A stretch of DNA of 23,977 bases from an uncultured Thermoplasmatales archaeon (GCA_964514975.1 CAZESS010000026.1:1-23977); one strand, 5' to 3'; counted from the first letter of the stretch, positions 4,560-23,110 are shown. Numbers and translations: made by a program. Notes: generated by a model from the letters alone, not told the origin.

Positions 4560-5543
4560 ATGCATTGTCTTGGATTGGAAGGAACGGCCCACACTGTTGG
4601 CGCGGGCGTCATCCGCGACGAGCCACCGTTCGTGCTGTCCAACGTGACGCGGATGTACCGGCCGACGGAGGGCGGCATCCATCCGCGTGATGCCGCGAAT
4701 CATCATGCCGCCGAGCTCGTACCCGTCGTCAGGGATGCGCTCGACGATGCCGATGTTACCCCCGGCGACATCGACCTGGTCGGGTTTTCGATGGGGCCCG
4801 GACTGGGTCCCTGTCTGCGGACGGTTGCGACGGCGGCCCGGTCGCTGGCGCTGCATCTCGACGTGCCATTGCTGGGTGTCAACCACTGCATCGCGCATCT
4901 TGAGATTGGCCGGGCGTTGACGGATGCACATGACCCTGTTTTGCTGTACGTGTCGGGCGGGAACACCCAGGTTATCGCGTTTTTGAACGGCCGCTACCGC
5001 GTCTTCGGTGAAACCCTGGACATCGGCATCGGCAACTGCCTGGACAAGTTCGGCCGCCATTTGGACATGGGGTTCCCCGCCGGTCCCCGGGTAGAGGAGC
5101 TGGCGCGCCAGGGCTCCCGGTATCTGGAGCTCCCCTACTCGGTGAAGGGCATGGACGTCTCGTTTTCGGGCATCCTGACAGCGGCGCTCACCCTGGCCGA
5201 CAACGCGGCGCTGCCGGATGTCTGTTATTCGCTGCAGGAGACCAGCTTCGCGATGCTGACAGAGGTGACCGAGCGGGCGATGGCGCACACCGCCAAGGAC
5301 GAGGTGCTCCTGGGCGGCGGCGTCGCCTCGAACCACCGGCTGCAGGACATGGTTACCACGATGGCGCAGGCGCGCGGCGCCCGGTGTTTTGTGCCGCCGG
5401 GCGACCTGCTGGTGGACAACGGAGCCATGATAGCGTGGACGGCGCTGCTGATGCACCGGTCTGGCGTTTCCATGGATGTCGCGTCGACTGAGGTCAGACA
5501 GCGGTTTCGTACCGACGAGGTGGACGTGGTATGGCGCGACTGA
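4560..5543 (+). CDS. kae1: tRNA N6-adenosine threonylcarbamoyltransferase Kae1 (KEOPS)
   Basis: GLEGTAHT, GGIHPRDAA.HH, GPGLGPCL, VNHCIAHLEIG, YVSGGNTQV, GETLDIGIGN, DNGAMIA, RFRTDEV. Confidence 0.97.
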   Translation: MHCLGLEGTAHTVGAGVIRDEPPFVLSNVTRMYRPTEGGIHPRDAANHHAAELVPVVRDALDDADVTPGDIDLVGFSMGPGLGPCLRTVATAARSLALHLDVPLLGVNHCIAHLEIGRALTDAHDPVLLYVSGGNTQVIAFLNGRYRVFGETLDIGIGNCLDKFGRHLDMGFPAGPRVEELARQGSRYLELPYSVKGMDVSFSGILTAALTLADNAALPDVCYSLQETSFAMLTEVTERAMAHTAKDEVLLGGGVASNHRLQDMVTTMAQARGARCFVPPGDLLVDNGAMIAWTALLMHRSGVSMDVASTEVRQRFRTDEVDVVWRD

Positions 5544-6154
5544 TACAGCGCGGCGCCGAGGCCGAGATATGCCGCGACAGGTGGCATGGCCGGCAGGTCG
5601 TGGTCAAGCGCCGGGTACCCAAGCGATACCGCATCCCCGAGATAGATGCGGCGCTGCGCAGCCTGCGGACCCGGAAGGAGGCAGCGCTCCTGCACGAGGC
5701 ACGCTGCAGCGGCGTCGCCACCCCGGTTGTCTACGATGTCGACCTGCATGACATGGCGATCACCATGCAGTTTTTGGACGGACGGCGCGTCAAGGACGTC
5801 ATTGATGGGCTAGGCGGCGAGGAGCAGCGCTCGCTGTGCCGGTCGATTGGCAGCGCCGCCGGCCGTCTCCACCGGGGCGGCATCGTGCACGGCGACCTGA
5901 CCACCTCGAATATCATCGTGCACGGCGAGTGTATTTATTTCATCGACTTTGGATTGGGCGAGAAAAGCGACGGCGTGGAGCAGCGGGCCGTCGACATGCA
6001 CCTGCTCATGGAGGCGCTGACCGCGGCACACGAAAACCCCCGGCTGTATGGATGGGTGATGGAGGGCTACACCTCGATGTCCCCGGACGCGGAGGCGGTG
6101 CGGCGGACGGTGGACGACATCGCTGCCCGCGGCCGATATGTGGTGAAACCATGA
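5531..6154 (+). CDS. bud32: KEOPS kinase/ATPase Bud32
   Basis: GAEAEI, K.RVPK.YR..EID..LR..RT..EA, HGDLTTSN, IDFGL, RGRY C-terminus. Overlaps kae1 by 13 nt. Confidence 0.96.
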   Translation: MARLIQRGAEAEICRDRWHGRQVVVKRRVPKRYRIPEIDAALRSLRTRKEAALLHEARCSGVATPVVYDVDLHDMAITMQFLDGRRVKDVIDGLGGEEQRSLCRSIGSAAGRLHRGGIVHGDLTTSNIIVHGECIYFIDFGLGEKSDGVEQRAVDMHLLMEALTAAHENPRLYGWVMEGYTSMSPDAEAVRRTVDDIAARGRYVVKP

Positions 6155-8535: not shown

Positions 8536-8973
8536 TCATCCGTCCTGCTGCTGGAAAAACCGGTCGACCATCTCCGCGAACTCATGGAACGGGACCGTCC
8601 GCTCCACGACCTTTTCGGCATAGGCGTCCAGGCTGTCGCTCCATTCGGTGCCGAACCATGCCGTGTAGCCCCAGATGCGAATCCCGTCATCGAGGTCAAG
8701 CAGCGCCTTCGTGGTCCGCACTCCGTCCATCCGGTCGCTGCCCGTCCGATGCCGCTCGACCGCGTCCATGTCCCCCTCGCCTGACAGGTTGAGATCCATG
8801 ACGACCAGGTCGGGTCGTTTCTCCTGCTGTAGCAGCTGGCGGTAGGTCTCCACGGCGTCCTCGCCGGTTTCCGCATGGTGGAGCTCCACCGGCGTGCTCA
8901 TACGCTCGAGATGCGCTCCCAGCAGGTCATGGATCATTGGCTCGTCGTCGACGATAAGAATTATTTTACTCAC
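8536..8973 (-). CDS. Stand-alone (CheY-like) response regulator receiver, atypical
   Basis: ILIVDDEP, PDLVVMD (phospho-acceptor Asp), MDG, GYTA. Start taken as GTG 8973, 5 nt after the SD GAGGTGA and overlapping the upstream stop. Confidence 0.9.
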   Translation of the reverse strand: MSKIILIVDDEPMIHDLLGAHLERMSTPVELHHAETGEDAVETYRQLLQQEKRPDLVVMDLNLSGEGDMDAVERHRTGSDRMDGVRTTKALLDLDDGIRIWGYTAWFGTEWSDSLDAYAEKVVERTVPFHEFAEMVDRFFQQQDG

Positions 8974-11488
8974 AGATTTCACCTCTCTGCGTCACGTTTT
9001 TTACGACGGATTCCACCCGCGATATGGCTCTGCGGGCCGCCAGTATCTTCTCCCGATCCTCCCCGGGAAGGCTGTCCGAGACCAGGTCGATGTATCCCTT
9101 CGCGATGGAAATCGGGTTGAAAAAATGGTGGGCGGTCTTAAGCTTGAAGACCCGTTCTTTTTCCAGCGCGCGTTCCATCTCCTCGTAGGCTCGCTTCCGC
9201 TCGGTGATGTCATAGGCGGTGCCCAGGATGGCCGGCTTTCCCTGATAGATGATCGATGTCGCCGTCAGGTCCGCCCATTTTTCGTCGCCGTCACGGGTGA
9301 GCACCTTGACCTCATAGCGCGTCGGGATGGAGCTGTCGCCCGCCATCCGCTGTCTCCCGCGCTCTCTGACCATCTCCCGGTGGTCCGGATGGACGATGTC
9401 CCAGAACGGCATCCTTTGTAGTTCACCCCGGTCGTATCCGGACATCTCCTCCATGGATGGGTTCACATACTGGAACGTCTCCCCCTGATGGATGAAAATA
9501 GCGGAGGTGGAGGACTCGGCCAGCAGCCGGAACTTTTCCTCGCTTTCCTTCAGCGCCTGCTCCATCTCTATCCGGGTGGTGATGTCGCGGAGGATGCCCA
9601 TCACCAGCGGCATGTCCTCCGTGCCGATGTCAACGGTGGCTACCTCGACCACCCTGACGTCGCCGCCGGCAGCGATTACCCGGAACTCGTAGCGGCTGGG
9701 TACCGCCTCGCCGCTCTCCCGGGCAGCCGCCCGTTTTTTTACGATGTCATGGTCGTCGGGGTGGATGATGTTCCAGAAGGAGAACGTGTTGCTGTATATC
9801 TCGTCGGCGCTGTAGCCCGTGATGTCCTCGAAGGCCGGGTTGACGTACTGGAATCCTTTTTCGGGATGGATGATGTAGATGGCGTCATGGGCGTTCTCCA
9901 CCAGGTTCCGGAACCTTGTTTCGCTGTGCTCGAGCGCCAGCTGCGCCTGTTTCCTGGCGGTGATATCCCGGGCGATGCCCTGCACGGCATATGGCTCCCC
10001 CTGCCGGTAGATGAGCGACCCCTCTGTTTCCACCCATACGATGCTGCCGTCCCTGGCGCGCAGCCGGTACTCCGTCGGCTCATGCTGGGTGCCGGTCTCA
10101 CGTATCTCCTCGATGGTCTCCATCGCCCGCTCGACATGTGCCTCGTCGTCAAGCAGCCGGGAAAACGACAGCATGGACATCTCCTCCTCGGAGTAGCCAA
10201 GCAGGTCACGCGTCGCCTGATTCGCGTCGATGAAGTTCCCCGAAAAATCATGAATGTACACGGCGAGCATGGTCCGGTCGAAAAACGCCTCATAGCGCGC
10301 CTCGCTTTCACGGAGCGCCTTCTCTGCCATCTTCCGGTCGGTGATGTCCTCCACCGTCCCCACGAAATATGCGACCTCGCCATCGTCGTCGCGGACGGTA
10401 CGGGCGCTCTCCGATATCCATATCGTGGCCCCGTCCTTGCGGTAGACCTGCGATTCGAAATCCACGACCTCGCCCTCTTCGAGCAGCCGTCTGACCAGCT
10501 CCTCCCGTCGCTCCGGGGTGACGTAGAGCTGCGAGCCGATGTCGCGCATACCGTGAAGCAGCTCCTCCGGGGACTCGTAGCCATAGATGCGGGCGAGCGC
10601 CGGGTTCACGCTGATGTGGTAGCCCTCCGGCGTGCTCTTATAGATGCCCATGACGGCGTTCCTGAAAATGTTTTTATAGTTTTCCTCCGCGACGCGCAGC
10701 GCATCCTCCGCCCGTTTTTGCCGGGTGATATCCCGGACGATGGCCTGCACCATCGAGGCGTCCTCCAGCTCGATCCGGTTGAGCGACACCTCCGCCTCGA
10801 ACGGTGTGCCGTCCATGCGGACATGCCGCCAGTAAAACCGCTGTGGCTCCCCTGTAAGAGCGGCCCGGATGCGGGCACGTGCCTTCTCCGCCGAGTCAGC
10901 GCCGTCGGGCTGCCGCGGCGGCGAAAACTCCCCGGGCGAATGACCGATGATGTTTTCCTTCTTGCATCCAAACATCTCCAGCGCCTTCTGGTTGCAGTCA
11001 ATGAACACGTCCTCAGTCATCAAAAAAATCGCGTCGTTGGCAGACTCGAACAGCGTCCGGTATTTCCGCTCGCTCGTTTTCACCTTCACCAGCGAGCGCT
11101 CCCGCCGGGTCACGTTCCGGAGCATACCCACGACACGGGTTTCATCGCCGGGAAGCGCAACCGTGTTCACCTCGACATGTCGGACGGAGCCGTCCTTCGA
11201 CACAATCCGGAACTGGTACACCGGATCCAGTTCATCTCCGCGCTCCCGTGCCTGCTCCCGCTTTTCTATCAGCGCCCGGTCGTCGGGATGGATGACGTCC
11301 CAGAAATCAAATGCCTCGGAGCAGACCTCGTCGGCGCTGTAGCCCGTGATGTCCTCGAAGGCAGGGTTGACATATTCGAAGCCGGACGGCGTAATAATAT
11401 ATATGCCGTCGAGAGCGTGCTCGACGAGCGTATGATAGACGTGCTCCCGGTCGTCGGGCATCCGGGCTGAACCGCTGTCGCTTGCCAT
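8966..11488 (-). CDS. Cytoplasmic six-PAS sensor ending in a HisKA/DHp-like hairpin with no HATPase domain
   Basis: Six PAS/PAC units ending RNVT, RDIT, EDIT, RDIT, RDIT and YDIT, then TAHHFFNPISIAKGYIDL and a stop about 50 aa later. GGGAG SD before the ATG. Confidence 0.92.
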   Translation of the reverse strand: MASDSGSARMPDDREHVYHTLVEHALDGIYIITPSGFEYVNPAFEDITGYSADEVCSEAFDFWDVIHPDDRALIEKREQARERGDELDPVYQFRIVSKDGSVRHVEVNTVALPGDETRVVGMLRNVTRRERSLVKVKTSERKYRTLFESANDAIFLMTEDVFIDCNQKALEMFGCKKENIIGHSPGEFSPPRQPDGADSAEKARARIRAALTGEPQRFYWRHVRMDGTPFEAEVSLNRIELEDASMVQAIVRDITRQKRAEDALRVAEENYKNIFRNAVMGIYKSTPEGYHISVNPALARIYGYESPEELLHGMRDIGSQLYVTPERREELVRRLLEEGEVVDFESQVYRKDGATIWISESARTVRDDDGEVAYFVGTVEDITDRKMAEKALRESEARYEAFFDRTMLAVYIHDFSGNFIDANQATRDLLGYSEEEMSMLSFSRLLDDEAHVERAMETIEEIRETGTQHEPTEYRLRARDGSIVWVETEGSLIYRQGEPYAVQGIARDITARKQAQLALEHSETRFRNLVENAHDAIYIIHPEKGFQYVNPAFEDITGYSADEIYSNTFSFWNIIHPDDHDIVKKRAAARESGEAVPSRYEFRVIAAGGDVRVVEVATVDIGTEDMPLVMGILRDITTRIEMEQALKESEEKFRLLAESSTSAIFIHQGETFQYVNPSMEEMSGYDRGELQRMPFWDIVHPDHREMVRERGRQRMAGDSSIPTRYEVKVLTRDGDEKWADLTATSIIYQGKPAILGTAYDITERKRAYEEMERALEKERVFKLKTAHHFFNPISIAKGYIDLVSDSLPGEDREKILAARRAISRVESVVKNVTQRGEICE
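9791..9898 (-). repeat. 108-nt inverted repeat, arm 1 (in PAS5); partner at 20430-20537
   Basis: The reverse complement is 107/108 identical to 20430-20537. Confidence 0.95.
11327..11362 (-). repeat. 36-nt exact third copy of the repeat core (in PAS1)
   Basis: Identical to 9800-9835 and to the reverse complement of 20493-20528; encodes AFEDITGYSADE. Confidence 0.9.
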
Positions 11489-11539
11489 GATGCTCCCTGC
11501 TACGAGGCGAATATGTGCATCTCAAAGCGGGATGCAATG

Positions 11540-11552
11540 CTATAAACGTTTC
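11540..11552 (-). promoter_or_regulatory. BRE/TATA promoter of the PAS-receiver operon
   Basis: Minus strand GAAACGTTTATAG, about 50 nt upstream of ATG 11488. Confidence 0.7.
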
Positions 11553-11566
11553 GGAAAAAAACCCGG

Positions 11567-11986
11567 CTACCGCCATCGTTCCAGGGGCGACGCCGACAGC
11601 CCATGATGCACGAGCAGACGGGACAGCGCCTCCCCGTCGGCACGAAACAGATGGCTGGAACACCGGCAGTCGCTGCACCCGAATTTGTCCACGGCGGCAA
11701 AGCGTGCTGCAAGCGCCCTTGCCACCTCGCACTCCCGCCGCTCATCCGGGGTATGCCATACCCTTGTCACGGTGGCCTCCCGTAGCAGGTAGTCGATGTG
11801 CCAGTGCACTGTTTTGTCGGCGCGGAGATGCCTGGCGATGCGACGCCGGAGGCCGTTCATCGCGGAGCCGACATAGGCATACCCTCCCGCATCGAACCGA
11901 ACACGGCCGAGCGCCCCGACCACCATGTCGGCGGGAGCAGGCAGCTCGATTTCCAGCACATAGGTGCCCGGCACGTCGGCAGCCAC
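11567..11986 (-). CDS. DUF123 / GIY-YIG (Uri superfamily) nuclease
   Basis: GTYVL...VGALG...G.YAYVGSA..GL..RI.RH, HWHIDYL, ECEVA, FGCSDCRC.SHL. Confidence 0.9.
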   Translation of the reverse strand: MAADVPGTYVLEIELPAPADMVVGALGRVRFDAGGYAYVGSAMNGLRRRIARHLRADKTVHWHIDYLLREATVTRVWHTPDERRECEVARALAARFAAVDKFGCSDCRCSSHLFRADGEALSRLLVHHGLSASPLERWR

Positions 11987-11987
11987 G

Positions 11988-12791
11988 TTATTCCCCGACA
12001 GCAGCCTCTATCCGCTCCACGATGTCCATGAAGGCGGCTGCGGCCGCCGACGTCCCGCCGGCGAACGGCTCGCCGGCATCCCCGGAGGCGGCGACCGCCG
12101 TGTCCAGGGGCACCGCGCCCAGGAACGGCACGTCGAGCTCCTCCGCCGCCCGCCGGCCGCCGCCCTGCTTGAACAGCTCGATGGACTCGCCGCAGTGCGG
12201 GCAGGTGAAACCGCTCATGTTCTCGATGACGCCCAGCACCGACATGTTGACCTGTCTGGCGAACATGACGGCCTTCCGCGCGTCGAGCAGCGCGACATCC
12301 TGCGGCGTCGTCACCACCACGGAATGGCCGCCCGGGATGATCTGGGCGATGCTGAGCGGCTCGTCACCCGTCCCCGGGGGCAGGTCGATGATGAGATAGT
12401 CGAGCGGGCCCCACTGCACGTCGCCCAGGAACTGCCGGATGACGCTCATCTTGAGCGGGCCGCGCCATATCACGGGCAGGTTTTTGTCCTGCAGCAGAAA
12501 CGCCATCGACATCACCTTGAGGCCAGACGGGGTTGTCGCGGGGATGATGCTGTCCTCGTCGCCGGAGACGCGGACGTCCTCGATGCCCAAAAGCTTCGGG
12601 ATGTTGGGGCCGTGGATGTCCACGTCGAGGAGGCCGACGTCGTGGCCACGCATGGCGAGCGCCGTCGCAAGGTTGGCGGCCACGGTGCTCTTGCCGACGC
12701 CGCCCTTGCCGCTGATGACCGCCAGCGTATGCCCGATCTGCGCAAGGTTGTCAGCCAGCTTTTCGTCCTTTTTATCTCTCTGTTGCTGCAT
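11988..12791 (-). CDS. apbC: Mrp/NBP35 (ApbC) Fe-S cluster carrier ATPase
   Basis: SGKGGVGKST, DVDIHGP, VIWRGPLK, WGPLDYLIIDLPPGTGDE, VTTPQ, ENMSGFTCPHC. Confidence 0.95.
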   Translation of the reverse strand: MQQQRDKKDEKLADNLAQIGHTLAVISGKGGVGKSTVAANLATALAMRGHDVGLLDVDIHGPNIPKLLGIEDVRVSGDEDSIIPATTPSGLKVMSMAFLLQDKNLPVIWRGPLKMSVIRQFLGDVQWGPLDYLIIDLPPGTGDEPLSIAQIIPGGHSVVVTTPQDVALLDARKAVMFARQVNMSVLGVIENMSGFTCPHCGESIELFKQGGGRRAAEELDVPFLGAVPLDTAVAASGDAGEPFAGGTSAAAAAFMDIVERIEAAVGE

Positions 12792-12812
12792 GGAGAGGCA
12801 ATGCCGCGGCGG

Positions 12813-12852
12813 TAATCAATGTTTCCCCTGTGGCCACCCGAAATTATTATAG
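12813..12852. promoter_or_regulatory. Back-to-back divergent promoters for mrp (minus) and the C25 lipoprotein (plus)
   Basis: Minus strand GAAACATTGATTA (12813-12825) ends 21 nt before ATG 12791; plus strand GAAATTATTATAG (12840-12852). Confidence 0.6.
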
Positions 12853-12886
12853 AGACGTAGCATATATGGATATCACCGTGATGCCA

Positions 12887-15724
12887 ATGAATAGAAAAGA
12901 GATGAAGGTCATGGTCGTCTTTGCTATCGCCATCATGATCGGTGCCACCCTGAGCGGGTGTGTGGATAACGCCGGCGTCAAGGAGGTCAAGGGCTTCGAC
13001 ATGGACGACATCGACGACATTGACGTGGAACGAAAACAGGGAGCCATGCCGGTGGTTGCTGCCGAGCACACCCCCCTGTATGCGCTCATCGGCACCCCCA
13101 TCGCCGCCTATTATGAGGGCAACGAGAGCATGATTGCGCCGCTGCTGGTGAAAAACATGACGGACCCGTCGAAACCGGTTGCCCGCTTTGACCGCCAGTA
13201 TCCATACAGCGGCGAGATAACGCTCGACGATGGCACGCCGGAAAACCTGTCGCTCGACCTGGTGCCGCAGATATGGGACAAGAGCGATGCGGTCGTGCTC
13301 GTGGAGGACAGCGAGCGGGGCTACAGCCTCGGCGTCGCCGCGACGCCAATCGCCTCATATCTCAACATCCCTGTCGTCGTGACCGACGAGACCGACGATG
13401 TCCGCGACCTGCTCGACGACCTCGGCGTCAAATATACCTTCATGTGCGGTGACCTGGAGGGCCATGAGCGAACCTGGCGCTTCAAAAACGACCAGGCCAT
13501 CACCAACTTCCTCGTCGACTACGTGAAAGAGCGGTTTGGCTCCGTGGAATACCTCTCCATCACCAACCCCCGGGATGCCTACCCCCCGGCGGTGTTGAAC
13601 ACCACCTCCTATGACTTCAGCGGCACCCTGAACTCGGTTGCCATCCTGCCATCGACGCTGGGCTCAACGGCCAGGGGCTTCCTCCAGCCGCGGTATCACA
13701 ACTTCACCATCCCCGAGGGCTACAAGTATGCCCGGGTGAAAATTGACCTCATAAACCTCAACTCGGAAAACGTGCAGGAGATGGGTGACCACGTCACCAT
13801 ATCGGGCGGCCCGCGCCTCGAGGACCTGCCCGCTGCGCAGCAGAACTACGAGCTCGTGCAGATAAACACCATGGCCGGCATCCCCGAACGGGACGAAAAC
13901 GGCGACATCGTCACCGACAGGCTGCACTACGAGACGGTGCTCTATGACCGCGGCGGCGTCACCTATGACCTGTCGCTGATGGGCACCTGGCTCGCCAGCA
14001 AGCAGGGCGAATACCGGCTCGACGTCACCGTCGAACAGCTCAGCGACCCATACATCTCGACGATGCCGAAGCTCTCGGCCGTTGCTCCCTATCTCACCGC
14101 CTACCGGCAGGGTGTCATCTGGGCGGAGCGGGACTTCGCGTTTGCCGCCACCGACAACGTGACGGTCAACGGCGACACCTGCCCCGGTTTCTACGTCCCC
14201 CGGAAAAACCCGGACCTGGCGGAGCCGCTCAACGATAAGCTCATGGAACGCCACGAGGAGCTCAACATGTTGCTCGGCAACATGTCCAACATCTCCGGCG
14301 ATGACACGAAGGCGCTCTGGCAGCACTACAGTGACAACCCCATCAACGTCGCGCTCGTCGGCGGCACCACCATGCTGCCCCAGTACATCCATGACAACCC
14401 GGACACGCCCCGGGACGACCCAATGGGCATCTACTACTTCGGCTACGGCACCCCGAGCGACGTCATCTACGGCAACATCGACCCCAAGCAGGGCGACCCC
14501 AAAAACGACACCTTCAGCTACTGGCCGCGACAGGAAAACATCGTCGGCCGCATCACCGGCTGGGACGTCCAGGATGCCTCGGCGCTCGTCTGCCGCACCA
14601 TTTTCTATGAGGAAATCATCCAGGACATGGGCGACTGGAAGAGCAGCGCGACGGTGCAGTCCGGTACGGGCACCGATTTCCAGAAGGTGCCGGTCATCGA
14701 GCAGGTCAAAAACCTGCTGGCGCCGTTGCTCGGCGGCGCCGCGGGCGACCCCATGAAGTTTCCGTCCGGGGCAACCCGGTTTGCCGGCGACGCCGTGGCA
14801 GCCAGCATCGAGGACGGCGGCTACGAGGTCGACCGCACCTATTTCACGTTCTCGCAGCGCAAGGGCTTCAGCGACGAAGCGTTAACGGATATAAAGCGCA
14901 GCGGCCTGCTCAACATGCTCCTGTTCCCCAAGTTCGAGATAAAAATGCTCAGTGGCGAGGACGTCGTCGTCGGCGGCGAGCTGCAGCCCGAGAGCAACAT
15001 CATCTACGAAAACGGGCACGGCAGCATGCACCTCTACGAGTTCGGCGACGTGGTCATGTGGGGCCTGGGCATCGGCTACTTCTTCGGCCCGCTCATCATG
15101 GGCTTCCTGACCCGGATTTCGATGTTCGCGACGCCGATGGCCGCGCTCGGCACCTATAGCCCGCGCGGCGTCGAAGACATGGAGCTCGGCCCGTCGACCA
15201 TGATGATCGAGAGCTGCGTGAACGGCAAGATAGACGGCATGTATATCCCCAACAACATCGGGCAGGCATACATCCACGCCGGCGTCAACTCGCTGCTGGC
15301 GTCGACCACGTTCACCAATGTCGCCGGATATCTCAAGCCACGCCCGTTTATTCACAGCCTCGGTATAACCGCCTACGTGAAGGCCTGGTATGACCTGCTC
15401 GTCAACGGCGAGTATCCCCGTTTGAACTTCGGGATGCTGATGCACGAGCAGATGTTCCATGACATGGCGCAGAACGACACCACGATAGGCATGGCGTTAC
15501 GGAACGCCCGCAACGACTATCTGCCAAAGGATGCAAACGAGACGTTTCTGTGGGTGCCGCCGCTCGGCGGCGAGGCGAGCACCACCTACCAGGGCGACAC
15601 GGGCATCCTGAAGCCAGACAGCCGCGGCGACCGGGTGCTCCTCAAAAAATACAACACCTACCTGCAATACGCAATCTACGGCGACCCGGCGTTCAACCCG
15701 TATCAACCGGTGAACAACGGCTGA
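12887..15724 (+). CDS. Lipoprotein, putative peptidase C25 (gingipain-like, clan CD) with N-terminal CWB2-like repeats
   Basis: Lipobox signal MNRKEMKVMVVFAIAIMIGATLSG-C, V.LVGG, SD..YG, VGRITG, NGHG (putative catalytic His), ESC (putative catalytic Cys), TIG.ALR.A.N.Y, YGDPAFNPY. Start could be 12881, 12887 or 12902. Confidence 0.75.
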   Translation: MNRKEMKVMVVFAIAIMIGATLSGCVDNAGVKEVKGFDMDDIDDIDVERKQGAMPVVAAEHTPLYALIGTPIAAYYEGNESMIAPLLVKNMTDPSKPVARFDRQYPYSGEITLDDGTPENLSLDLVPQIWDKSDAVVLVEDSERGYSLGVAATPIASYLNIPVVVTDETDDVRDLLDDLGVKYTFMCGDLEGHERTWRFKNDQAITNFLVDYVKERFGSVEYLSITNPRDAYPPAVLNTTSYDFSGTLNSVAILPSTLGSTARGFLQPRYHNFTIPEGYKYARVKIDLINLNSENVQEMGDHVTISGGPRLEDLPAAQQNYELVQINTMAGIPERDENGDIVTDRLHYETVLYDRGGVTYDLSLMGTWLASKQGEYRLDVTVEQLSDPYISTMPKLSAVAPYLTAYRQGVIWAERDFAFAATDNVTVNGDTCPGFYVPRKNPDLAEPLNDKLMERHEELNMLLGNMSNISGDDTKALWQHYSDNPINVALVGGTTMLPQYIHDNPDTPRDDPMGIYYFGYGTPSDVIYGNIDPKQGDPKNDTFSYWPRQENIVGRITGWDVQDASALVCRTIFYEEIIQDMGDWKSSATVQSGTGTDFQKVPVIEQVKNLLAPLLGGAAGDPMKFPSGATRFAGDAVAASIEDGGYEVDRTYFTFSQRKGFSDEALTDIKRSGLLNMLLFPKFEIKMLSGEDVVVGGELQPESNIIYENGHGSMHLYEFGDVVMWGLGIGYFFGPLIMGFLTRISMFATPMAALGTYSPRGVEDMELGPSTMMIESCVNGKIDGMYIPNNIGQAYIHAGVNSLLASTTFTNVAGYLKPRPFIHSLGITAYVKAWYDLLVNGEYPRLNFGMLMHEQMFHDMAQNDTTIGMALRNARNDYLPKDANETFLWVPPLGGEASTTYQGDTGILKPDSRGDRVLLKKYNTYLQYAIYGDPAFNPYQPVNNG

Positions 15725-15744
15725 ACGGGCGCCGTTTCTCTCCC

Positions 15745-15796
15745 TTTTTTTCTTCTTTTGGTGGTACCCGGAAAAGAAGCTGTAACGGGGAAAAAA
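15745..15796. terminator. Probable bidirectional oligo-T terminator between convergent genes
   Basis: T-tracts on the plus strand (15745-15759) and minus strand (15771-15796); an 8-bp inverted repeat CTTCTTTT/AAAAGAAG at 15752-15779. Confidence 0.6.
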
Positions 15797-15800
15797 CTGG

Positions 15801-16103
15801 TCAGTATTCGCGCCACTTGTAGCCGCACCCGGTGCAGGTATAGATACGTGTCTCGGGTTCATCGGCCGCACGGGTCTGCCTGAGCACCCAGTATGCCTCG
15901 TTATGACCGCATTCGGGGCAGGTCACCTGGGTTTTCGGTAGCACTTCGAGGTCTTCCTCGCTGTCGATGACGGTCAGCTCCTGCTCCTCCCGGCCGGCGA
16001 CGATGCACCGTTCCCCGGTCTTTTTTTCCCGGTGTTCGCACTTGCGGCAGACCATCTCGTTGCCGTCAGGATACAGCAGAGACCCACAGTCCGGACAAAA
16101 CAT
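15801..16103 (-). CDS. tfs: Transcription factor S (TFS, RpoM/TFIIS-like)
   Basis: MFCPDCGSLLYP..C.KC and CPECG..AYW..RQTRAADEPETRIY.C..CG.KWREY, with an intact catalytic DE. Start is 16103 or 16109, not 16331. Confidence 0.95.
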   Translation of the reverse strand: MFCPDCGSLLYPDGNEMVCRKCEHREKKTGERCIVAGREEQELTVIDSEEDLEVLPKTQVTCPECGHNEAYWVLRQTRAADEPETRIYTCTGCGYKWREY

Positions 16104-16123
16104 AGACATCGTATGGCGACTCC

Positions 16124-16174
16124 CATAAAAATGTTTTGCGGCAGACAGGACAATTTCCAATGGGTATATATACC
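16124..16174. promoter_or_regulatory. Divergent promoter region for tfs and the histidine kinase
   Basis: Minus strand AAAACATTTTTATG (16124-16137) lies 20 nt before ATG 16103; palindromic GGTATATATACC at 16163-16174. Confidence 0.55.
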
Positions 16175-16231
16175 GACGGATGCTATCATCTGTATCGCCA
16201 CTGGCGGATATGCCGGGAGGATTGAGACAGA

Positions 16232-19200
16232 ATGGGCCTGGACGCCGCCCTGTATCTGGCACCGCTGCTCGTCGGCGGCATCGTTTCGCTGCTGTTACTG
16301 GTGACGCTGTTTCCCCGGCGCCGCTCGCCACTGGTCCGGATGTTCATGCTGTTTCTCGGCGCCGTCTGCCTGTGGACGTTTGCCTACATCCTCGAACTAT
16401 GGGCGGGTGATTTCTCAGGGACGCTGCTCTGGCGGAAGGTTAGATATGTCGGCGTCTGCTTTGCCCCCGTCCTCTGGTTTTGTTTCGCGATGCGGTACAG
16501 CGGACGGGAGCAATGTACCCGTTTGCGGTCGCTGGTGCTGCTGTCCATTGTCCCCGTGGTGGCCCTGGCTTTTTTGTGGCTCAGCGGCCATGAGGGGCTG
16601 TTTTTTACCGGGATGGCCAGCGTCACCGACGGGCCTTTCACGGTCATCGAGGACAGCGCCGGGCCGTTTTTCTGGGCGCAGGCCGTCTATGGATATCTGC
16701 TCGTGATGGCCGGCATCGTGTTCCTCCTCCGGCATGCGGCGACCGGCGCTCGCATCTATGTCCGGCAGGCGCTCTCCGTCGTGGCCGGCATCCTCGTGCC
16801 GTTTCTGGGCAACCTGTTCGTCGTGCTGGGTGTGAACCCGTTTTCGTTTCCCTATGATGTCACGCCGGCGCTGTTTCCGGTGGCGGCGGTGGCGGTCTGG
16901 TGGAGCATTTTCCGCTTCCGGTTTCTGGACATGGTGCCGGTGGCCCGGCGGGCGCTGTTCGACAGCCTGGACGACATCATTTTCGTCGTTGACGACCGGA
17001 GCCGGATTATTGATGGTAACCCTGCCGCGGTTGAGCTTCTCGCCGGCCTGTCGTCATCCCTTGAGGGCGGCGTGATAGGCCGGCAGGCCGACGACATGTT
17101 TTCGGGGTATCCCGAGCTGGCTGCTATTGCTCGGGCGACCGAGAAGATGGAGACGGAGCTCGCTGTTTCGGCTGGCGACCAGGAGAGATATTATGATGTA
17201 ACCGCGTCGCCGATGTACGGCCGGGGCGGGACATGCGTCGGCCGCCTGGTGACCATGCGGGATATCACCGACCGGAAGGAGGTGGAGAATGCGCTGCGCC
17301 ATCGCATCGAGCTGCAGGAGCTCATCAGCGGCCTGTCGACGCATTTCATCAACCTGCCACCGGATGAGGTCGACGACGGAATCCATGGCGCGCTGCGGCA
17401 AATCGGCCGGTTCGTTGATGTTGACCGGTGCTATGTGTTCAGGTTTTCCGATGACCTCGCTCGGATGGATAACACCCATGAATGGTGCGCCGAGGATGTC
17501 GAGCCGCAGCGGGAGCATCTGCAGGGGCTGTCGGCGGATTCGTTTCCCTGGTGGATGGAACGGCTGCGCCGCTTCGAGGTGATACATGCCCCATGTGTCG
17601 ATGACCTGCCACCGGCTGCCGTGGCGGAGAAAGACATCCTGCAGGCGCAGAACATCAGGTCGCTGGTGGTCGTGCCGATGGCGTACCGGCAGGAACTGGT
17701 CGGGTTCATCGGGTTTGACTCGGTGCGGGAGGAAAAACAGTGGTCGGACGAAACCGTTGACCTGCTGCGGCTCGTCGGCGACATCATCGTCAACGCGCTC
17801 GAGCGGAAAAAAGCCGAGGGGCAGCGACGGTTTCAGCGGCAATATTTCCAGGCATTGTTCAATGATTCCCCGGAGGCCATCGTCTCCCTCGACCGGCATC
17901 ACCGGGTGCTGGATGTCAATCCCTCGTTCCGGAGGCTGTTTGGATACACCGCCGAGGAGCTCAAAGGAGAAAACATCGACGATTATATTCTTCCCGACGA
18001 CGAATATGAGCGCGAGGGCAGGGGTATAACGGACAAGGTAACGCACGGCCAGGAGGTGAAAACGGAGACGGTGCGGCAGCATAAGGACGGCAGCGAGGTG
18101 TACGTATCCCTGTGGGCGTCCCCGATTTTCGTCGACGGCGAAGAGGTCGGCATCTTCGGCATATACCGGGACATAGGGGAGCGCAAGCGGGCCGAATGGG
18201 AAACCCGGCGCCGGGCGACGCAGGCATCGCTCATCTACGAGGTCGGACGGGAGGTCAGCGGCGAGCTCGACCTGCAGGAGCTGCTGCCGAAAATCGTTCA
18301 GGCCGTCCGGGATTCCTTCAGCTATTTCGGGGTGCATCTCTTTCTCGCCGACGAGGACACCGGAAACCTGCATCTGCAGTCCATCGCCGGCGGATACGAA
18401 GAGGTGTTTCCGCTGGAGCTCACCATAGCGCCGGGCGAGGGCCTGATAGGCCGGGCGGCCGAAACAGGTGAAACACAGGTCAGCAACGACGTCAGCACCA
18501 GCCCCCATTATGTGCAGAAGGCAGGTGAGATGACCATGGCCGAGATGGCCGTCCCCGTGAAAAAGGGAGCGCAGGTCATCGGCGTCCTCGACATCCAGGC
18601 CGACACCTCCGACGTGTTTGATGAGAGCGACGTGACCGCGATGGAAACGCTCAGCACCCAGATAGCTGCAGCCATCGAAAACGCCCGGCTGTACGAGCAG
18701 GCGCAGCGAGAAATCGCGGAGCGGCAGCAGGCCGAGAAAAACCTCGCCGAGCTCAACGAGGTGCTCCGGCTGACCAACAAGATACTCCGGCATGACATCC
18801 TCAACGACATGCAGGTCGCGCAGAGCGCCCTTGAGCTGTACCGCGAGGGCGAAAGCGAGGACATGCTCGAGCGCATACGTCGCAGGATACAGCAGAGCGT
18901 CGAGCTCATCAACCGGATGCGCCAGCTTGAATCTCTCATCTCCGCCGGCGGGGACATGCAGGCCTATGACGCCGGAGCCGTCGTTGCGGAGGCAGCGGAG
19001 GACCATCCCGCGACATGCAACGTGCACGGGACCTGCATGGTGAAAGCCGACGACGCCATCCACTCCGTCATCGACAACCTCCTGGAAAACGCGGTCGTGC
19101 ACGGCGGCGCTGACACCATCGACGTAACCATCGAACAGCGGGACGACAGCGGCATGCTACGCATCGCCGACAACGGCACCGGCATCCCCGACGACATCAA

Positions 19201-19375
19201 GCAGCAGGTGTTCGCCGAGGGCTTCAGCCATGGCGATAACGCCGGTACAGGTCTCGGCCTCTACATCGTCAAAAAAACCGTGGAGCGCTACGGCGGCTCC
19301 ATAGCCATCGAGGACAACGAGCCGCACGGCGCCGTCTTCGTGCTGCGGCTGCCCGCAGGGGGGGAGGAACCATGA
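16232..19375 (+). CDS. Membrane sensor histidine kinase: HisKA_7TM-like region, PAS, GAF, PAS, GAF, DHp, HATPase
   Basis: About seven hydrophobic segments ending FRFLDMVPVAR, PAS/GAF motifs, H-box LRHDILND, N-box NLLENAVVHG, G1 DNGTGIP, F-box VFAEGFS, G2 GTGLGL. GGAGG SD upstream. Confidence 0.95.
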   Translation: MGLDAALYLAPLLVGGIVSLLLLVTLFPRRRSPLVRMFMLFLGAVCLWTFAYILELWAGDFSGTLLWRKVRYVGVCFAPVLWFCFAMRYSGREQCTRLRSLVLLSIVPVVALAFLWLSGHEGLFFTGMASVTDGPFTVIEDSAGPFFWAQAVYGYLLVMAGIVFLLRHAATGARIYVRQALSVVAGILVPFLGNLFVVLGVNPFSFPYDVTPALFPVAAVAVWWSIFRFRFLDMVPVARRALFDSLDDIIFVVDDRSRIIDGNPAAVELLAGLSSSLEGGVIGRQADDMFSGYPELAAIARATEKMETELAVSAGDQERYYDVTASPMYGRGGTCVGRLVTMRDITDRKEVENALRHRIELQELISGLSTHFINLPPDEVDDGIHGALRQIGRFVDVDRCYVFRFSDDLARMDNTHEWCAEDVEPQREHLQGLSADSFPWWMERLRRFEVIHAPCVDDLPPAAVAEKDILQAQNIRSLVVVPMAYRQELVGFIGFDSVREEKQWSDETVDLLRLVGDIIVNALERKKAEGQRRFQRQYFQALFNDSPEAIVSLDRHHRVLDVNPSFRRLFGYTAEELKGENIDDYILPDDEYEREGRGITDKVTHGQEVKTETVRQHKDGSEVYVSLWASPIFVDGEEVGIFGIYRDIGERKRAEWETRRRATQASLIYEVGREVSGELDLQELLPKIVQAVRDSFSYFGVHLFLADEDTGNLHLQSIAGGYEEVFPLELTIAPGEGLIGRAAETGETQVSNDVSTSPHYVQKAGEMTMAEMAVPVKKGAQVIGVLDIQADTSDVFDESDVTAMETLSTQIAAAIENARLYEQAQREIAERQQAEKNLAELNEVLRLTNKILRHDILNDMQVAQSALELYREGESEDMLERIRRRIQQSVELINRMRQLESLISAGGDMQAYDAGAVVAEAAEDHPATCNVHGTCMVKADDAIHSVIDNLLENAVVHGGADTIDVTIEQRDDSGMLRIADNGTGIPDDIKQQVFAEGFSHGDNAGTGLGLYIVKKTVERYGGSIAIEDNEPHGAVFVLRLPAGGEEP

Positions 19376-20987
19376 ACCAACGCGAAGGCATCCTCCTGCT
19401 GGCCGCCTCCGTCGTAATATATGTCACATTTTTCTTTCTGTTGTATCCGGTGGTGGGAGCTGCCGTGGTGGGATTGTCCATCGTCGTCCCGCTCATTGGG
19501 GGATGGATGTGGGGATTGCGACCCGGCGTGGCCAGCGGCCTGGCCATGTTCCCGGTGAACGTGGCGCTCCTGCTGATGGAGGGAGAGGCGGCCTGGCATC
19601 TGATGACCCATGGCGGCCTCATCGGGACAATCATCCTGGTGGTGGTCGGGGGCGCGGTCGGCCATCTCCATGACCTTCAGCGCCGAATACGGGAGAGCGA
19701 ACAGAAATTTAGAAAACTGGCTGAGACCACCTCCACCGCCATCATGCTCTACCAGGATAACCGGTGGATCTATGCCAATCCCGCGGCGGAGAACATATGT
19801 GGGTACAGCCAGGAGGAGCTAAGGGGAAAAGAGGTTGAGGAAATTGTCGTCCCGGAACAGCGAGACATGGTACGGAAACGGGCGGAACAGCGACAGCAGG
19901 GAAAACCGGCCCCCTCAGGTTACGAATTTAAAATAGTGACCAAGGAGGGAAACGAGCGGTGGGTCTATCTCGAGGGGCCAACATGGAGCATGAGGGACGA
20001 CCGGCGGGCCTCATATCGGTGCTCGACGTCACCGACCGGAAGGAAACGGAGAAAAAGCTCCGGCTGGCCCAATATAGCCTGGACAACGCCGCGTTCAGCA
20101 TCTTCTGGATTACGCCCGAGGGCCACTTCAAATATGTCAATAAGGCCGCCTGTAAAAAGCTCGGGTACACCCGGAAGGAACTGCTTGACATGTCCGTATG
20201 GGACATAGACCCGGACCATACCCGGGACAGAAGACAGGAGACCTGGAAAGACTACAAGCAAAATAAACTGAAGACCTTCGAAACCAGGCATCGTACAAAG
20301 GACGGCCGGATATACCCCGTCGAGGTGACATCCTGCTACATCCAGCACAAGGGACAGGAATACGAGTTCGCCTACGCGGTTGACATCACCGGACGCAAAA
20401 AAGCGGAGCGGCGATATCGCAGCGTGGTCGAGAACGCCCATGACGCCATCTACATCATCCATCCTGAAAAAGGATTCCAGTACGTCAACCCGGCCTTCGA
20501 GGACATCACGGGCTACAGCGCCGACGAGATATACAGCGACACGTTTTCCTTCTGGGACCTCATCCATCCCGACGACCGGGCGATGGTAGAAGAGCGGGGG
20601 AAAGCGCGAGCCCGAGGTGTGGATGTCCCCGAACGCTACGAGTTCCGGGTGATCGCCAAAAACGGTGCGACCAGGATACTGGAGGCCACCACGGTCGACA
20701 TCGGAACGGGAGACAAGGCCCTGGTGATGGGCATCCTCCGCGATGTCACACAACGGGAGCAGGCCGTCAGGGAAATGAAACGGGCCCTGCAGCTCGAAAA
20801 ACAGTTCAAAGCAGATGCATCCCATTTTTTCCTCAATCCGATCGCCATCGCCAAGGGCTACATGGAGCTAGCCATGGAAGAGATGCCCGCTGTCTGCCGA
20901 AAAAAAATCAAAGCGTCCCGTGACGCCATCAAACGGGTGGAAAACGTCATTAAAAACATCGTCGAAAAAGGCGAAATACGTGAGTAA
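19372..20987 (+). pseudogene. Membrane-anchored three-PAS sensor with a terminal DHp and no HATPase, split by a 1-nt deletion at 19974-19977 (true frameshift or sequencing error)
   Basis: ORF 19372..20208 (TM helices plus PAS up to WVYLEG) continues in ORF 19959..20987 (ANMEHEGRPAGLISVLDVT). Adding one G to GGGG restores a 538-aa protein ending ASHFFLNPIAIAKGY...GEIRE. Confidence 0.85.
20430..20537 (+). repeat. 108-nt inverted repeat, arm 2; partner at 9791-9898
   Basis: 107/108 identity, with a single synonymous mismatch at 20465. Confidence 0.95.
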
Positions 20988-21073: not shown

Positions 21074-23110
21074 TCAGTGGCCCCGCCGCCGATGGAGCAC
21101 CAGCGCCGCCGCGGCGAGCAACAGCAGCGCCATGGAAAACCCGGGTATCTCGTCGCCGCCATCGTCTCTCCGGCCGGGGCGGGCTGGCTCGGTGGTGGTG
21201 AACGATATCGTGTAGCTGTCGTCGAGCCGGATGCCATGCAGGCTGGTAGCGTTGTCATGCAGGATGACAGTATAGCTCGTGCTATGGCTCAGGTTGCCCG
21301 TGGGATGCAGGGTAAGCGTCGTGGTGTTCCATGTGGTGATATGGGGAAAATCTGCGGAGAGCGCGTTTACCACGCTGCCCCGGTCCATCGCCTCCGAGAA
21401 ACGCATCCTGACCGATGTGTCCACGGGCACCTTCCGAGCACCGTTTTCGGGCCATACCGACAGGAGCGTGGGACGGACGACGGTGAAAGACAACGTGTAG
21501 GCTGCGGGCAGATGGTTGCGGTGCCGGTCCGTCGCATGCCGGTTTACGGTCACCGTGTAGGAGCCGGGCTGCAGCACGTCCGTGACGATGGCGAGCACGC
21601 TGCCGTTGTCACTCCATTCGAGATGATGGCTGAACCATGGCTGCAGCTCGAGCGCCCTGATGAAATACCGGGTTTCCATTTCCTCGGAAAACCGGATGCG
21701 GATGGTGCCGTTGGCCGGCATCGTTCCACCCTGCCCGGGATGTGTTTCCTCGACCGAGGGCGGCGTGGTGTCGGCGGAGGCCGTCTGGAATGAAACGCTG
21801 AACGGCCGGGCGAGATGCTGCCCGCTTGTCCGCTGCAGCCGCGTTGACAGCGTGACGGTGTAGGTGGTCTCATAGGCCCACTGCTCCCGGGGAGCTATCT
21901 CCAGGTGTGTGGCGTCGCGCCATGACACACCGGCGAGGACGGACGGCGTTATGGTGACGGCCTGCGCCGCGATGCTCTGGTTCATAGGATGGGAAAACGT
22001 GACCGTGAGCGGGGTGAAAACGTCGACGTCAGTGGCGTCGCCGGATGGTCTGGTGCCCGTGACCGACGGAGGCGAGGTGTCGACGGTGAACTGCCATCTC
22101 GCTGTGGCGGTCTGCCCGGCGTTGTCCTTCGCCCGCACCTCGAAGGTGTAGGTGCCGTCGGCGAGCCCGTCGTAGCTGCTCTGCCGTGTCCCTGTCCATG
22201 GCGACCACGTGTCGCTCCGGCCGAGCAGCCGGACGGAAAACGATATCTCCCCCGCAGGGGTCATGTCGTCGGTGGCCGTCCATCCAAAGGAGGCGTTCCG
22301 CACGCCGATGACCACATCCGGCTTTTCGATGATGGAGACATCCGGCGGCGCATCCTCTGGCGGACGAGCCGCAACGGCAGCGTCGACATAGTGAGCGGTG
22401 AACTGCCGGGTGTTATCCGGCGGGTCGGAGTACCGCTGGTGTCCCTCCGCGTTGAACATCGCAGCAATGACCATGACGTTGTCCCGTGTCACCCCCGTGA
22501 AGCCCGCCTGGCTGGCGTTCCATACGGCGTCGATGGACATGGTGCCGTCAAGGCTGACGGAGCGCTCGATAGCGAAGTCGAGGAACGCATAGCGGTAGTC
22601 CTCGCCGTCGTGGTCCTTCCAGCGAGAGGTTGGCTCGACGACATAGACCCGCAGGGTGCCCTCGTAGGCGTCGCTGCTCCGGATGGTGCCATCGACCGAG
22701 AGCTCGCCGTCCTGCCATGCAACATCAAGGGACAGGTCGACACTCGCCCGCGCCCGGTCGCGGGAGGACTCCACGGCGCTCCGGTAGGGCGTCACGGCTG
22801 ATTTTCCGCCGACCACGAGCTCGTAGCCCCCGTCGAAAAACGAGGTGGGATACACCGCCGGGTTGTAGCCGTCTATCCGGTCAGCGGCCAGGTTGTTTTT
22901 GTCGGTGACCATCATGACATAGATGAAGTCGTCGTCGCTGCGGCGGAGCTGCTCGAGCGCCATGCCGGTGTTGGGGCAGCCCTGGCACCAGCTCGCCGTT
23001 GCCACCTCGCAGAGGACGACGTCGTTGCTGGACGGTGACGCCTCGCCGGGTATGACCTGCAGAAAAGAGAAAAGGAAGAGGAGGGAGAGCGCGAGAGCGG
23101 CTGCTTTCAT
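21074..23110 (-). CDS. Surface protein: thioredoxin-like CxxC (Omp28-like) domain, FnIII-like domain, three Big_5/SbsA Ig-like domains, PGF-CTERM-like tail
   Basis: Signal peptide, EVATASWCQGC, YPTSFFDGG, three P....V.....I...FS..M repeats, IPGF followed by a hydrophobic helix and HRRRGH. Confidence 0.85.
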   Translation of the reverse strand: MKAAALALSLLFLFSFLQVIPGEASPSSNDVVLCEVATASWCQGCPNTGMALEQLRRSDDDFIYVMMVTDKNNLAADRIDGYNPAVYPTSFFDGGYELVVGGKSAVTPYRSAVESSRDRARASVDLSLDVAWQDGELSVDGTIRSSDAYEGTLRVYVVEPTSRWKDHDGEDYRYAFLDFAIERSVSLDGTMSIDAVWNASQAGFTGVTRDNVMVIAAMFNAEGHQRYSDPPDNTRQFTAHYVDAAVAARPPEDAPPDVSIIEKPDVVIGVRNASFGWTATDDMTPAGEISFSVRLLGRSDTWSPWTGTRQSSYDGLADGTYTFEVRAKDNAGQTATARWQFTVDTSPPSVTGTRPSGDATDVDVFTPLTVTFSHPMNQSIAAQAVTITPSVLAGVSWRDATHLEIAPREQWAYETTYTVTLSTRLQRTSGQHLARPFSVSFQTASADTTPPSVEETHPGQGGTMPANGTIRIRFSEEMETRYFIRALELQPWFSHHLEWSDNGSVLAIVTDVLQPGSYTVTVNRHATDRHRNHLPAAYTLSFTVVRPTLLSVWPENGARKVPVDTSVRMRFSEAMDRGSVVNALSADFPHITTWNTTTLTLHPTGNLSHSTSYTVILHDNATSLHGIRLDDSYTISFTTTEPARPGRRDDGGDEIPGFSMALLLLAAAALVLHRRRGH

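Follow-up and report, generated by a model that had tools for sequence, protein, structure and literature searches.

ATPase-less transmitter proteins with a fixed C-terminal end and a frequent atypical receiver partner in uncultured Thermoplasmatota

Described relatives and the layout of the window

Sensor proteins that combine PAS or GAF domains with a C-terminal HisKA-like domain bearing a conserved His, and that lack an HATPase domain, form a class described in 2018 (section 7 of Galperin et al. 2018, PMC5847659, J Bacteriol 200:e00681-17). In the sections of that paper available to us, they are referred to as 'nonenzymatic HK-like proteins' or 'HisKA, no HATPase' (in P2CS, 'possible incomplete histidine kinase'), REC-PAS-HisKA forms without HATPase are mentioned, and two roles are proposed, either as a phospho-acceptor in phosphotransfer or as a phosphatase toward response regulators. 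The same sections place the class mainly in Archaeoglobi and Methanomicrobia, put the total for 11 genomes of Thermoplasmata at only 3 kinases and 4 regulators, and describe the ATPase-less sensors as catalogued but never assayed, their unknown partners being the main obstacle. We analyzed a 23,977-nucleotide contig of an uncultured Thermoplasmatales archaeon (contig C26; GCA_964514975.1, CAZESS010000026.1:1-23977; hereafter the window), whose source bin comprises 1.96 Mb in 66 contigs. Two genes lying between positions 8536 and 20987, gene 1 and gene 2, encode proteins that end in the same HisKA-like hairpin of 79–85 amino acids (aa). Their sequences place both in a family of ATPase-less transmitter proteins that is specific to one lineage and frequently co-encoded with an atypical receiver (REC).

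The family has all three traits of the published class, namely sensor domains, a HisKA-like hairpin with its His, and no HATPase. It differs from the class as described in its fixed G-E-I-x-E-COOH end, in the aromatic residue or His at the position following the conserved His (H+1), in its frequent dedicated receiver, and in its confinement, among the genomes searched, to two uncultured Thermoplasmatota families. The fixed end, the H+1 residue and the receiver pairing do not appear in the sections of Galperin et al. 2018 that were covered; the supplementary Table S2, which lies outside this coverage, may list related proteins. A search for literature on this family, its receiver pairing or Thermoprofundales kinases turned up only that paper, Table S2 again excepted. 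We conclude that the family is real and well conserved, and that it is a new family within a class already described. The preliminary description of this locus had presented a candidate undescribed system, a label that has to be given up, as both the class and the two candidate roles are in section 7 of the 2018 paper.

Two further groups of known proteins are close. Bifunctional HisKA kinases such as EnvZ, HK853, ThkA and CrdS have a homologous dimerization and histidine phosphotransfer (DHp) domain, with the His, the Thr/Asn position at H+4 and the Pro at H+5, and docking of REC would be expected to occur in the same manner, for which our models offer weak support. Unlike these kinases, the present family has no catalytic ATP-binding domain, has replaced the Glu/Asp at H+1, and stops 5 residues past helix 2 of the hairpin. 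Spo0B and ChpT are likewise dimeric helical hairpins with a His and no kinase activity, and some operons of the family are relay-like in order; however, the family gives no profile match to either protein in the PDB and has large upstream sensor arrays and an invariant Asn at H+4. Spo0B and ChpT also carry a C-terminal alpha/beta domain. A DHp working without its catalytic domain has an engineered precedent: the isolated domain A of EnvZ, a fragment rather than a natural protein, reportedly retained phosphatase activity, to go by the title of the work of Zhu, Qin, Yoshida and Inouye from 2000 (PNAS 97:7808).

The signalling genes of the window fall into two operons that are encoded on opposite strands and separated by about 4.7 kb carrying housekeeping genes. 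Module A (8536–11488), consisting of a sensor and a receiver, is intact. Module B (16232–20987), consisting of a kinase and a sensor, is decayed, its sensor being frameshifted and its receiver gone. The preliminary description had joined all of these genes into one integrated system, in which the kinase with seven transmembrane helices wrote phosphate onto the lone receiver; given the two operons, this does not hold, and no link between that kinase and the lone receiver was seen in the window. The features are as follows.

8536..8982, minus strand: atypical stand-alone REC, 145–148 aa (Pfam Response_reg, AlphaFold2, Foldseek)
8966..11488, minus strand: gene 1 sensor, 840 aa, six PAS domains, then at the C-terminus a hairpin resembling HisKA (Pfam; the stop of the open reading frame is the end of the domain)
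8966..9223, minus strand: DHp hairpin of gene 1, H-box AHHFFNP at 9113–9133, end GEICE-stop (sequence read directly)
16232..19375, plus strand: complete sensor histidine kinase, 1047 aa, with HisKA_7TM, PAS, GAF, PAS, GAF, DHp (RHDILND) and HATPase_c (Pfam)
19372..19977, plus strand, frame 1: 5′ part of gene 2, membrane region and first two thirds of a PAS domain (open reading frame; Pfam PAS_3, positions 2–69 of 89)
19974..19977, plus strand: frameshift site, a run of four G with one base fewer than in two intact orthologues (frames read; alignment gap)
19977..20987, plus strand, frame 3: 3′ part of gene 2, remainder of the PAS domain, two further PAS domains and the hairpin, H-box SHFFLNP at 20820–20840, end GEIRE-stop (open reading frame, Pfam)

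A hairpin family with a fixed end point

The hairpins at the ends of genes 1 and 2 can be read directly in the sequence, with the H-boxes and the common end just where the preliminary description had placed them; the 3′ end of gene 1, for example, reads ggt gaa atc tgt gag taa. The two C-termini are 51% identical over 79 aa (E=1.5e-21). Pfam recognizes PAS families in 5–6 stretches of the gene 1 product and no HATPase. In an AlphaFold2 (AF2) model built with a 78-row alignment, the hairpin is predicted to form helices at residues 2–49 and 54–80, followed by a 5-residue tail, with a predicted local distance difference test score (pLDDT) of 90.9.

The end point is a property of the family. Eleven open reading frames (ORFs) of the same genome end precisely at the end of the hairpin domain. 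A profile of these 11 hairpins, run against 1,835,955,588 representative sequences, gave 318 matches at E<=1e-3, of which 124 reached E<=1e-10. When these strong relatives were re-scored, 118 of them stopped no more than 3 residues from where the domain ends, 5 ran on for 6–13 aa and one was cut by a contig end; continuation into another domain after the hairpin, an HATPase domain included, was found in 0/124. The idea that a matching end point argues against random truncation is thereby borne out on a much larger sample than the two genes from which it was drawn. Tails of more than 40 aa occurred in 10 weak matches. Nine of these, the nearest scoring about 40 bits, have ordinary H[DE][LI][RK][TN]P H-boxes and 144–198 residues beyond the domain, and are probably ordinary kinases; the tenth resembles a hairpin-REC fusion of the same genome. 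That fusion is an ATPase-less PAS-hairpin-REC protein (locus L104, contig C3:17250–18641 of the window's own genome, G000). A second ATPase-less protein of this genome (L103, C1:35737–36954) has a hairpin with Glu at H+1 (SHEFFNP) and stops 3 aa past the domain, and the next gene encodes an ordinary REC. Both proteins represent other hairpin subtypes.

Among 82 distinct members, H-x3-N-P is kept in every one and H+1 is Y, H or F, never acidic, so that the loss of the acid and the retention of His, Asn and Pro, first noted in genes 1 and 2, extend throughout the family. The C-terminal Glu is present in 81 of the 82. Across 78 aligned sequences, 11 columns do not vary, among them those of the H, the N, the P and the terminal E. 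The ratio of nonsynonymous to synonymous substitution rates (dN/dS) of the hairpin was 0.057, 0.099, 0.119 and 0.085 in four orthologue comparisons, values from which the hairpin is judged to be under purifying rather than relaxed selection. A search of the PDB with the family profile returned 6 sequences at a threshold of E<=1. The DHp of ThkA (3a0r) came first, at E=4.7e-4, and was followed by KinB and HK853 constructs, the family His falling on the phospho-acceptor His; neither Spo0B nor ChpT was among them. Hairpin paralogues scored 24.6 and 21.8 bits against Pfam HisKA (cut-off 26.9), an SHEFFNP-type protein on contig C1 scored 33.8 bits, and in NCBIfam no match passed the threshold, those to PhoR and other kinase families staying below it. 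The parts upstream of the hairpin vary, comprising PAS arrays, GAF, MASE11, a MASE1-like region or an N-terminal REC; with such varied sensor parts on one and the same hairpin, the hairpin behaves as a general output module.

A survey of 41 related genomes turned up the family in 38 (12/12 of one family, f1; 25/25 of a second, f2; 0/3 for three other families). Sampling 301 genomes of the phylum gave 23 that have it, comprising 9/9 of f1 and 11/11 of f2 together with two weak matches elsewhere (2/280), and the atypical REC was found in 9/9 of f1, 11/11 of f2 and 0/280 elsewhere; related genomes are not independent, and these counts overstate the support. Apart from the two weak hairpin matches, hairpin and atypical REC thus occur in this sample solely in f1 and f2, which belong to a single uncultured order of Thermoplasmatota. 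Among public loci, 66 of 68 are titled Thermoplasmatota, Thermoplasmata or Thermoplasmatales. The genome of the window encodes 14 kinases with an HATPase domain, of which 10 have an H-box of the RHD[ILMVG]xN type, that of the RHDILND kinase in module B, and 4 are canonical HisKA, against 13 hairpin-only proteins. Nearly half of the transmitters of this lineage therefore lack the kinase engine, and the lineage is rich in two-component proteins when set against the 3 kinases in 11 genomes of its class in the 2018 census, as given in the sections cited above.

The paired receiver and the proposed activity

The receiver of module A starts either at GTG 8973, which gives an 8-nt overlap with the stop of the sensor, or at an earlier GTG, 8982. 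As the receiver frame reads GTG AGT AAA from 8973, the GTGAGTAA overlap with gene 1 is real; the ATGA overlap in module B is equally real, since the terminus of the kinase (cca tga) shares bases with the ATG at 19372. Both overlaps had been read correctly before. The receiver scores 40.2 bits against Pfam Response_reg (cut-off 30.2), in an alignment limited to profile positions 1–63. Its AF2 model (pLDDT 86.7) has the (beta-alpha)5 fold, with an extra helix at residues 69–77 predicted in the beta3-alpha3 loop, and matches RR468, Spo0F and CheY in Foldseek (E~1e-7). D9, D10, D60 and T104 are shared by all 35 sequences aligned. When the window sequence (8539–8973) was aligned with 34 other loci, the inserted helix between beta3 and alpha3 showed a conserved His and a conserved Gly. 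After beta5, the alignment read by eye has Arg in most rows and Lys in a few, at what we take to be the site of CheY Lys109, and there are two additional residues ahead of the Pro-Phe.

Pairing of the hairpin proteins with such receivers recurs outside the window. In 80 members with at least 500 nt of downstream sequence, the next gene is an atypical REC overlapping by 2–17 nt in 38, an ordinary REC in 8 and no receiver in 34. Distance matrices of the DHp and the REC are correlated (Mantel r=0.668, reached by 0/2000 permutations), a correlation that shared descent alone could explain. A kinase with an HATPase domain lies within 4 kb on the same strand in 11 of the 38 sensor-receiver pairs, and directly upstream of the sensor in 6 pairs. 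Coupling of the hairpin proteins to a receiver or to a full kinase, which had been remarked on in the window, is therefore a recurring arrangement. The family thus comes with a partner that can be named, since in 38 of 80 cases the gene of a dedicated receiver overlaps that of the sensor; a full kinase is present as well in a minority of operons. With a defined partner, the published question of phosphotransferase or phosphatase becomes testable in vitro with three recombinant proteins.

A three-chain prediction consisting of two hairpins and one REC scored 0.56, against 0.26 for the best control. Three such runs gave contact agreement of at least 62% and a partner pLDDT of at least 78. In the benchmark used for the complex score, 58 of 80 solved complexes came up to the mark, and so did 2 of 110 mismatched pairs; at scores of 0.60 or below, those reaching the mark included only 7 of the 80 solved complexes and both of the mismatches. 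The predicted complex is weak support for docking. Moreover, solved kinase-regulator complexes exist, and the model may have passed merely through likeness to them.

We consider it probable that the family acts as a signal-gated phosphatase on its paired receiver, with reversible His-Asp phosphotransfer possible in addition. From what is directly observable, that is, the family with its fixed end point and conservation, the gene pairing and the co-distribution with the receiver, we infer binding, phosphatase and phosphotransfer activities and a source of phosphate, as follows. The sensor dimer would dock onto the co-encoded atypical receiver and set the phosphorylation of the receiver under sensor control. 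Its main activity would be that of a phospho-receiver phosphatase, the H-x3-N of the hairpin serving as the proposed catalytic pair of HisKA transmitter phosphatases, and reversible His-Asp phosphotransfer might also occur. The phosphate itself would come from full kinases of the RHDILN type, which share an operon with the pair in a minority of cases, or else from other donors. The phosphatase is favored because the family keeps the pair of His and H+4 Asn and has dropped the H+1 acid. In the portions of the literature available to us, only the kinase activity depends on the H+1 acid and only the phosphatase activity on the H+4 Thr/Asn (Willett & Kirby 2012), the HxxxT motif, His included, is proposed for the phosphatase activity of HK853 (Liu et al. 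2017), and phosphatase activity is governed by His chemistry (Mideros-Mora et al. 2020). The residue logic of the preliminary description agrees with the first two of these papers, to the extent just stated.

Several observations weigh against this proposal. An adjacent receiver is absent in the 34 members mentioned above, which include all 16 of 230 aa or less, and no kinase was found within 4 kb for 27 of the 38 pairs, although some of these loci are cut by contig ends. An invariant His would be expected equally of a pure phosphotransferase. Ten of the 82 members have an N-terminal REC of their own, and one operon of the same genome (C19:14000–22000, locus L102) encodes, on one strand, HAMP-HisKA-HATPase, REC, REC-HATPase, REC-GAF-PAS-hairpin and atypical REC, a five-gene layout that looks like a multistep phosphorelay. 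As for general tools, Pfam HisKA (PF00512) gave no match on gene 1 at E<=0.01, gene 2 scored 18.6 bits, below the 26.9 cut-off, and the best matches of the hairpin model in Foldseek, to the DHp domains of ZraS and CpxA, fall short of significance (best E=0.21). The weakness of the complex score counts here as well.

Part of this evidence speaks for a pure histidine phosphotransferase, a dimer similar to Spo0B or ChpT that would work in a multistep relay, passing phosphate from a kinase by way of a REC and the His to the atypical REC, and for which phosphatase activity would not be the main role. We place this reading second after the phosphatase and regard it as possible, though on the unlikely side. 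The invariant His, the N-terminal RECs, the relay-like order on C19 and the 6 pairs with a kinase directly upstream of the sensor would all suit it, as would the lost H+1 acid if the His were loaded from Asp~P and not from ATP, a step that extends what Willett & Kirby 2012 state in the portion available. By contrast, 72 of the 82 members have no REC of their own, and the Asn at H+4 is invariant in 82/82, even though in that same portion it is needed for phosphatase and not for kinase activity. The PDB profile search, as noted, brought up ThkA, KinB and an HK853 construct and no Spo0B or ChpT. The proteins, moreover, stop after the hairpin, and the C-terminal alpha/beta domain of Spo0B and ChpT is accordingly absent.

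We also entertain, as a tentative variant, a module that would operate independently of kinases. In such a module, the receiver would load itself, with a small-molecule phosphodonor or distant kinases as the source of phosphate, and the PAS-hairpin sensor, as a ligand-gated H-x3-N phosphatase, would be the only step under signal control; a lineage-specific docking device would then consist of the receiver's inserted helix and the sensor's invariant C-terminal Glu. If this were true, about half of the transmitters (13 hairpin-only proteins versus 14 full kinases) would erase phosphate rather than write it.

A split kinase, in which the catalytic domain of a neighboring or distant full kinase would phosphorylate the His with ATP in trans and the hairpin proteins would be extra substrates or sensors, appears improbable to us. 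Gene 2, one gene on contig C32 of the same genome and the members at loci L017 and L068 lie directly downstream of a full kinase, and the ATGA overlap in the window is in keeping with such a partnership. However, the H+1 acid required of a kinase is missing in all 82 members, the adjacent kinases have an H-box of a different type (RHDILN), and the 27 pairs mentioned above have no kinase nearby. A stand-alone ATPase domain as the partner was considered and ruled out: no short HATPase_c ORF was found in the genome, all 15 HATPase_c matches lying in frames of at least 324 aa.

Still less probable, in our judgment, is a role independent of phosphate, in which the hairpin would serve only for dimerization or as a scaffold, or would titrate full kinases through heterodimers of the RetS-GacS kind. 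Such a role would accommodate the 34 of 80 members without an adjacent receiver; the DHp domains of RetS and GacS are among the weak Foldseek matches, and the available part of Galperin et al. 2018 stresses protein-protein interaction as the prevailing archaeal output. A pure dimerizer, however, need not keep H, N and P invariant (78–82 sequences), in 38 members translation is coupled to that of a receiver in which D9, D10, D60 and T104 are retained, and the full kinases of the genome are mostly of another DHp type. The notion of truncated pseudogenes or assembly artefacts of ordinary kinases, to which only the frameshift of gene 2 would lend itself, is already refuted for the family by the common end point (118 of 124 strong representatives and the 11 ORFs of the same genome), the hairpin dN/dS of 0.06–0.12 and the presence of the family in 37/37 of the other f1 and f2 genomes searched.

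Decay of module B and neighboring genes

Gene 2 had been read without its frameshift, a description that needs correction. It is not a single open frame: frame 1 is open over 19372–20208 and frame 3 over 19959–20987, and the PAS domain is split between them at the G-run. Aligned with its orthologues in two same-genus genomes (G004 and G003), which are open frames of 566 and 555 aa, gene 2 shows a 1-column gap at 19974–19977. A contig from sequencing run X1, produced by another assembler (depth 14.2), matches 19300–20459 with 0 differences. Its identity across the frameshift rules out an error of the bin's assembler; run X1 may be the source sample, and its agreement does not come from an independent population. 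The orthologous loci in both same-genus genomes (2/2) encode the kinase, an intact sensor and an atypical REC. In the window, by contrast, no receiver gene follows gene 2 (after 20987). Since gene 2 is frameshifted and this receiver is missing, unlike at the same-genus loci, we consider module B decayed in this genome. Runs X2–X5 contain 0.04–0.06 of the sampled words; for X2 and X7 the matches were confined to short conserved stretches of PAS, and for X6 there was none. These runs are uninformative on habitat or distribution.

The genes between the two modules, which are unrelated to them, encode an ATPase of the NUBPL/ParA type, a C25-like peptidase and a TFS-like protein. The second of these (12830–15724, plus strand) is 964 aa long, matches Peptidase_C25 weakly (48.6 bits, residues 496–616) and has an N-terminal hydrophobic stretch. 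Downstream of module B, on the minus strand (21074–23110), a 678-aa protein contains a Y_Y_Y domain besides three Ig-like domains of the Big_5 type. At the C-terminus of this protein stand PGF, then a hydrophobic stretch, then basic residues, an arrangement resembling that of an archaeal PGF-CTERM sorting signal. At 4560–6154 (plus strand), a Kae1/TsaD gene is followed by a gene for a small RIO/Bud32-like kinase, the usual archaeal KEOPS pair, with Ham1, FBPase class V and a TFS-like gene nearby; in view of these genes, the chromosomal context of the two modules is an ordinary one.

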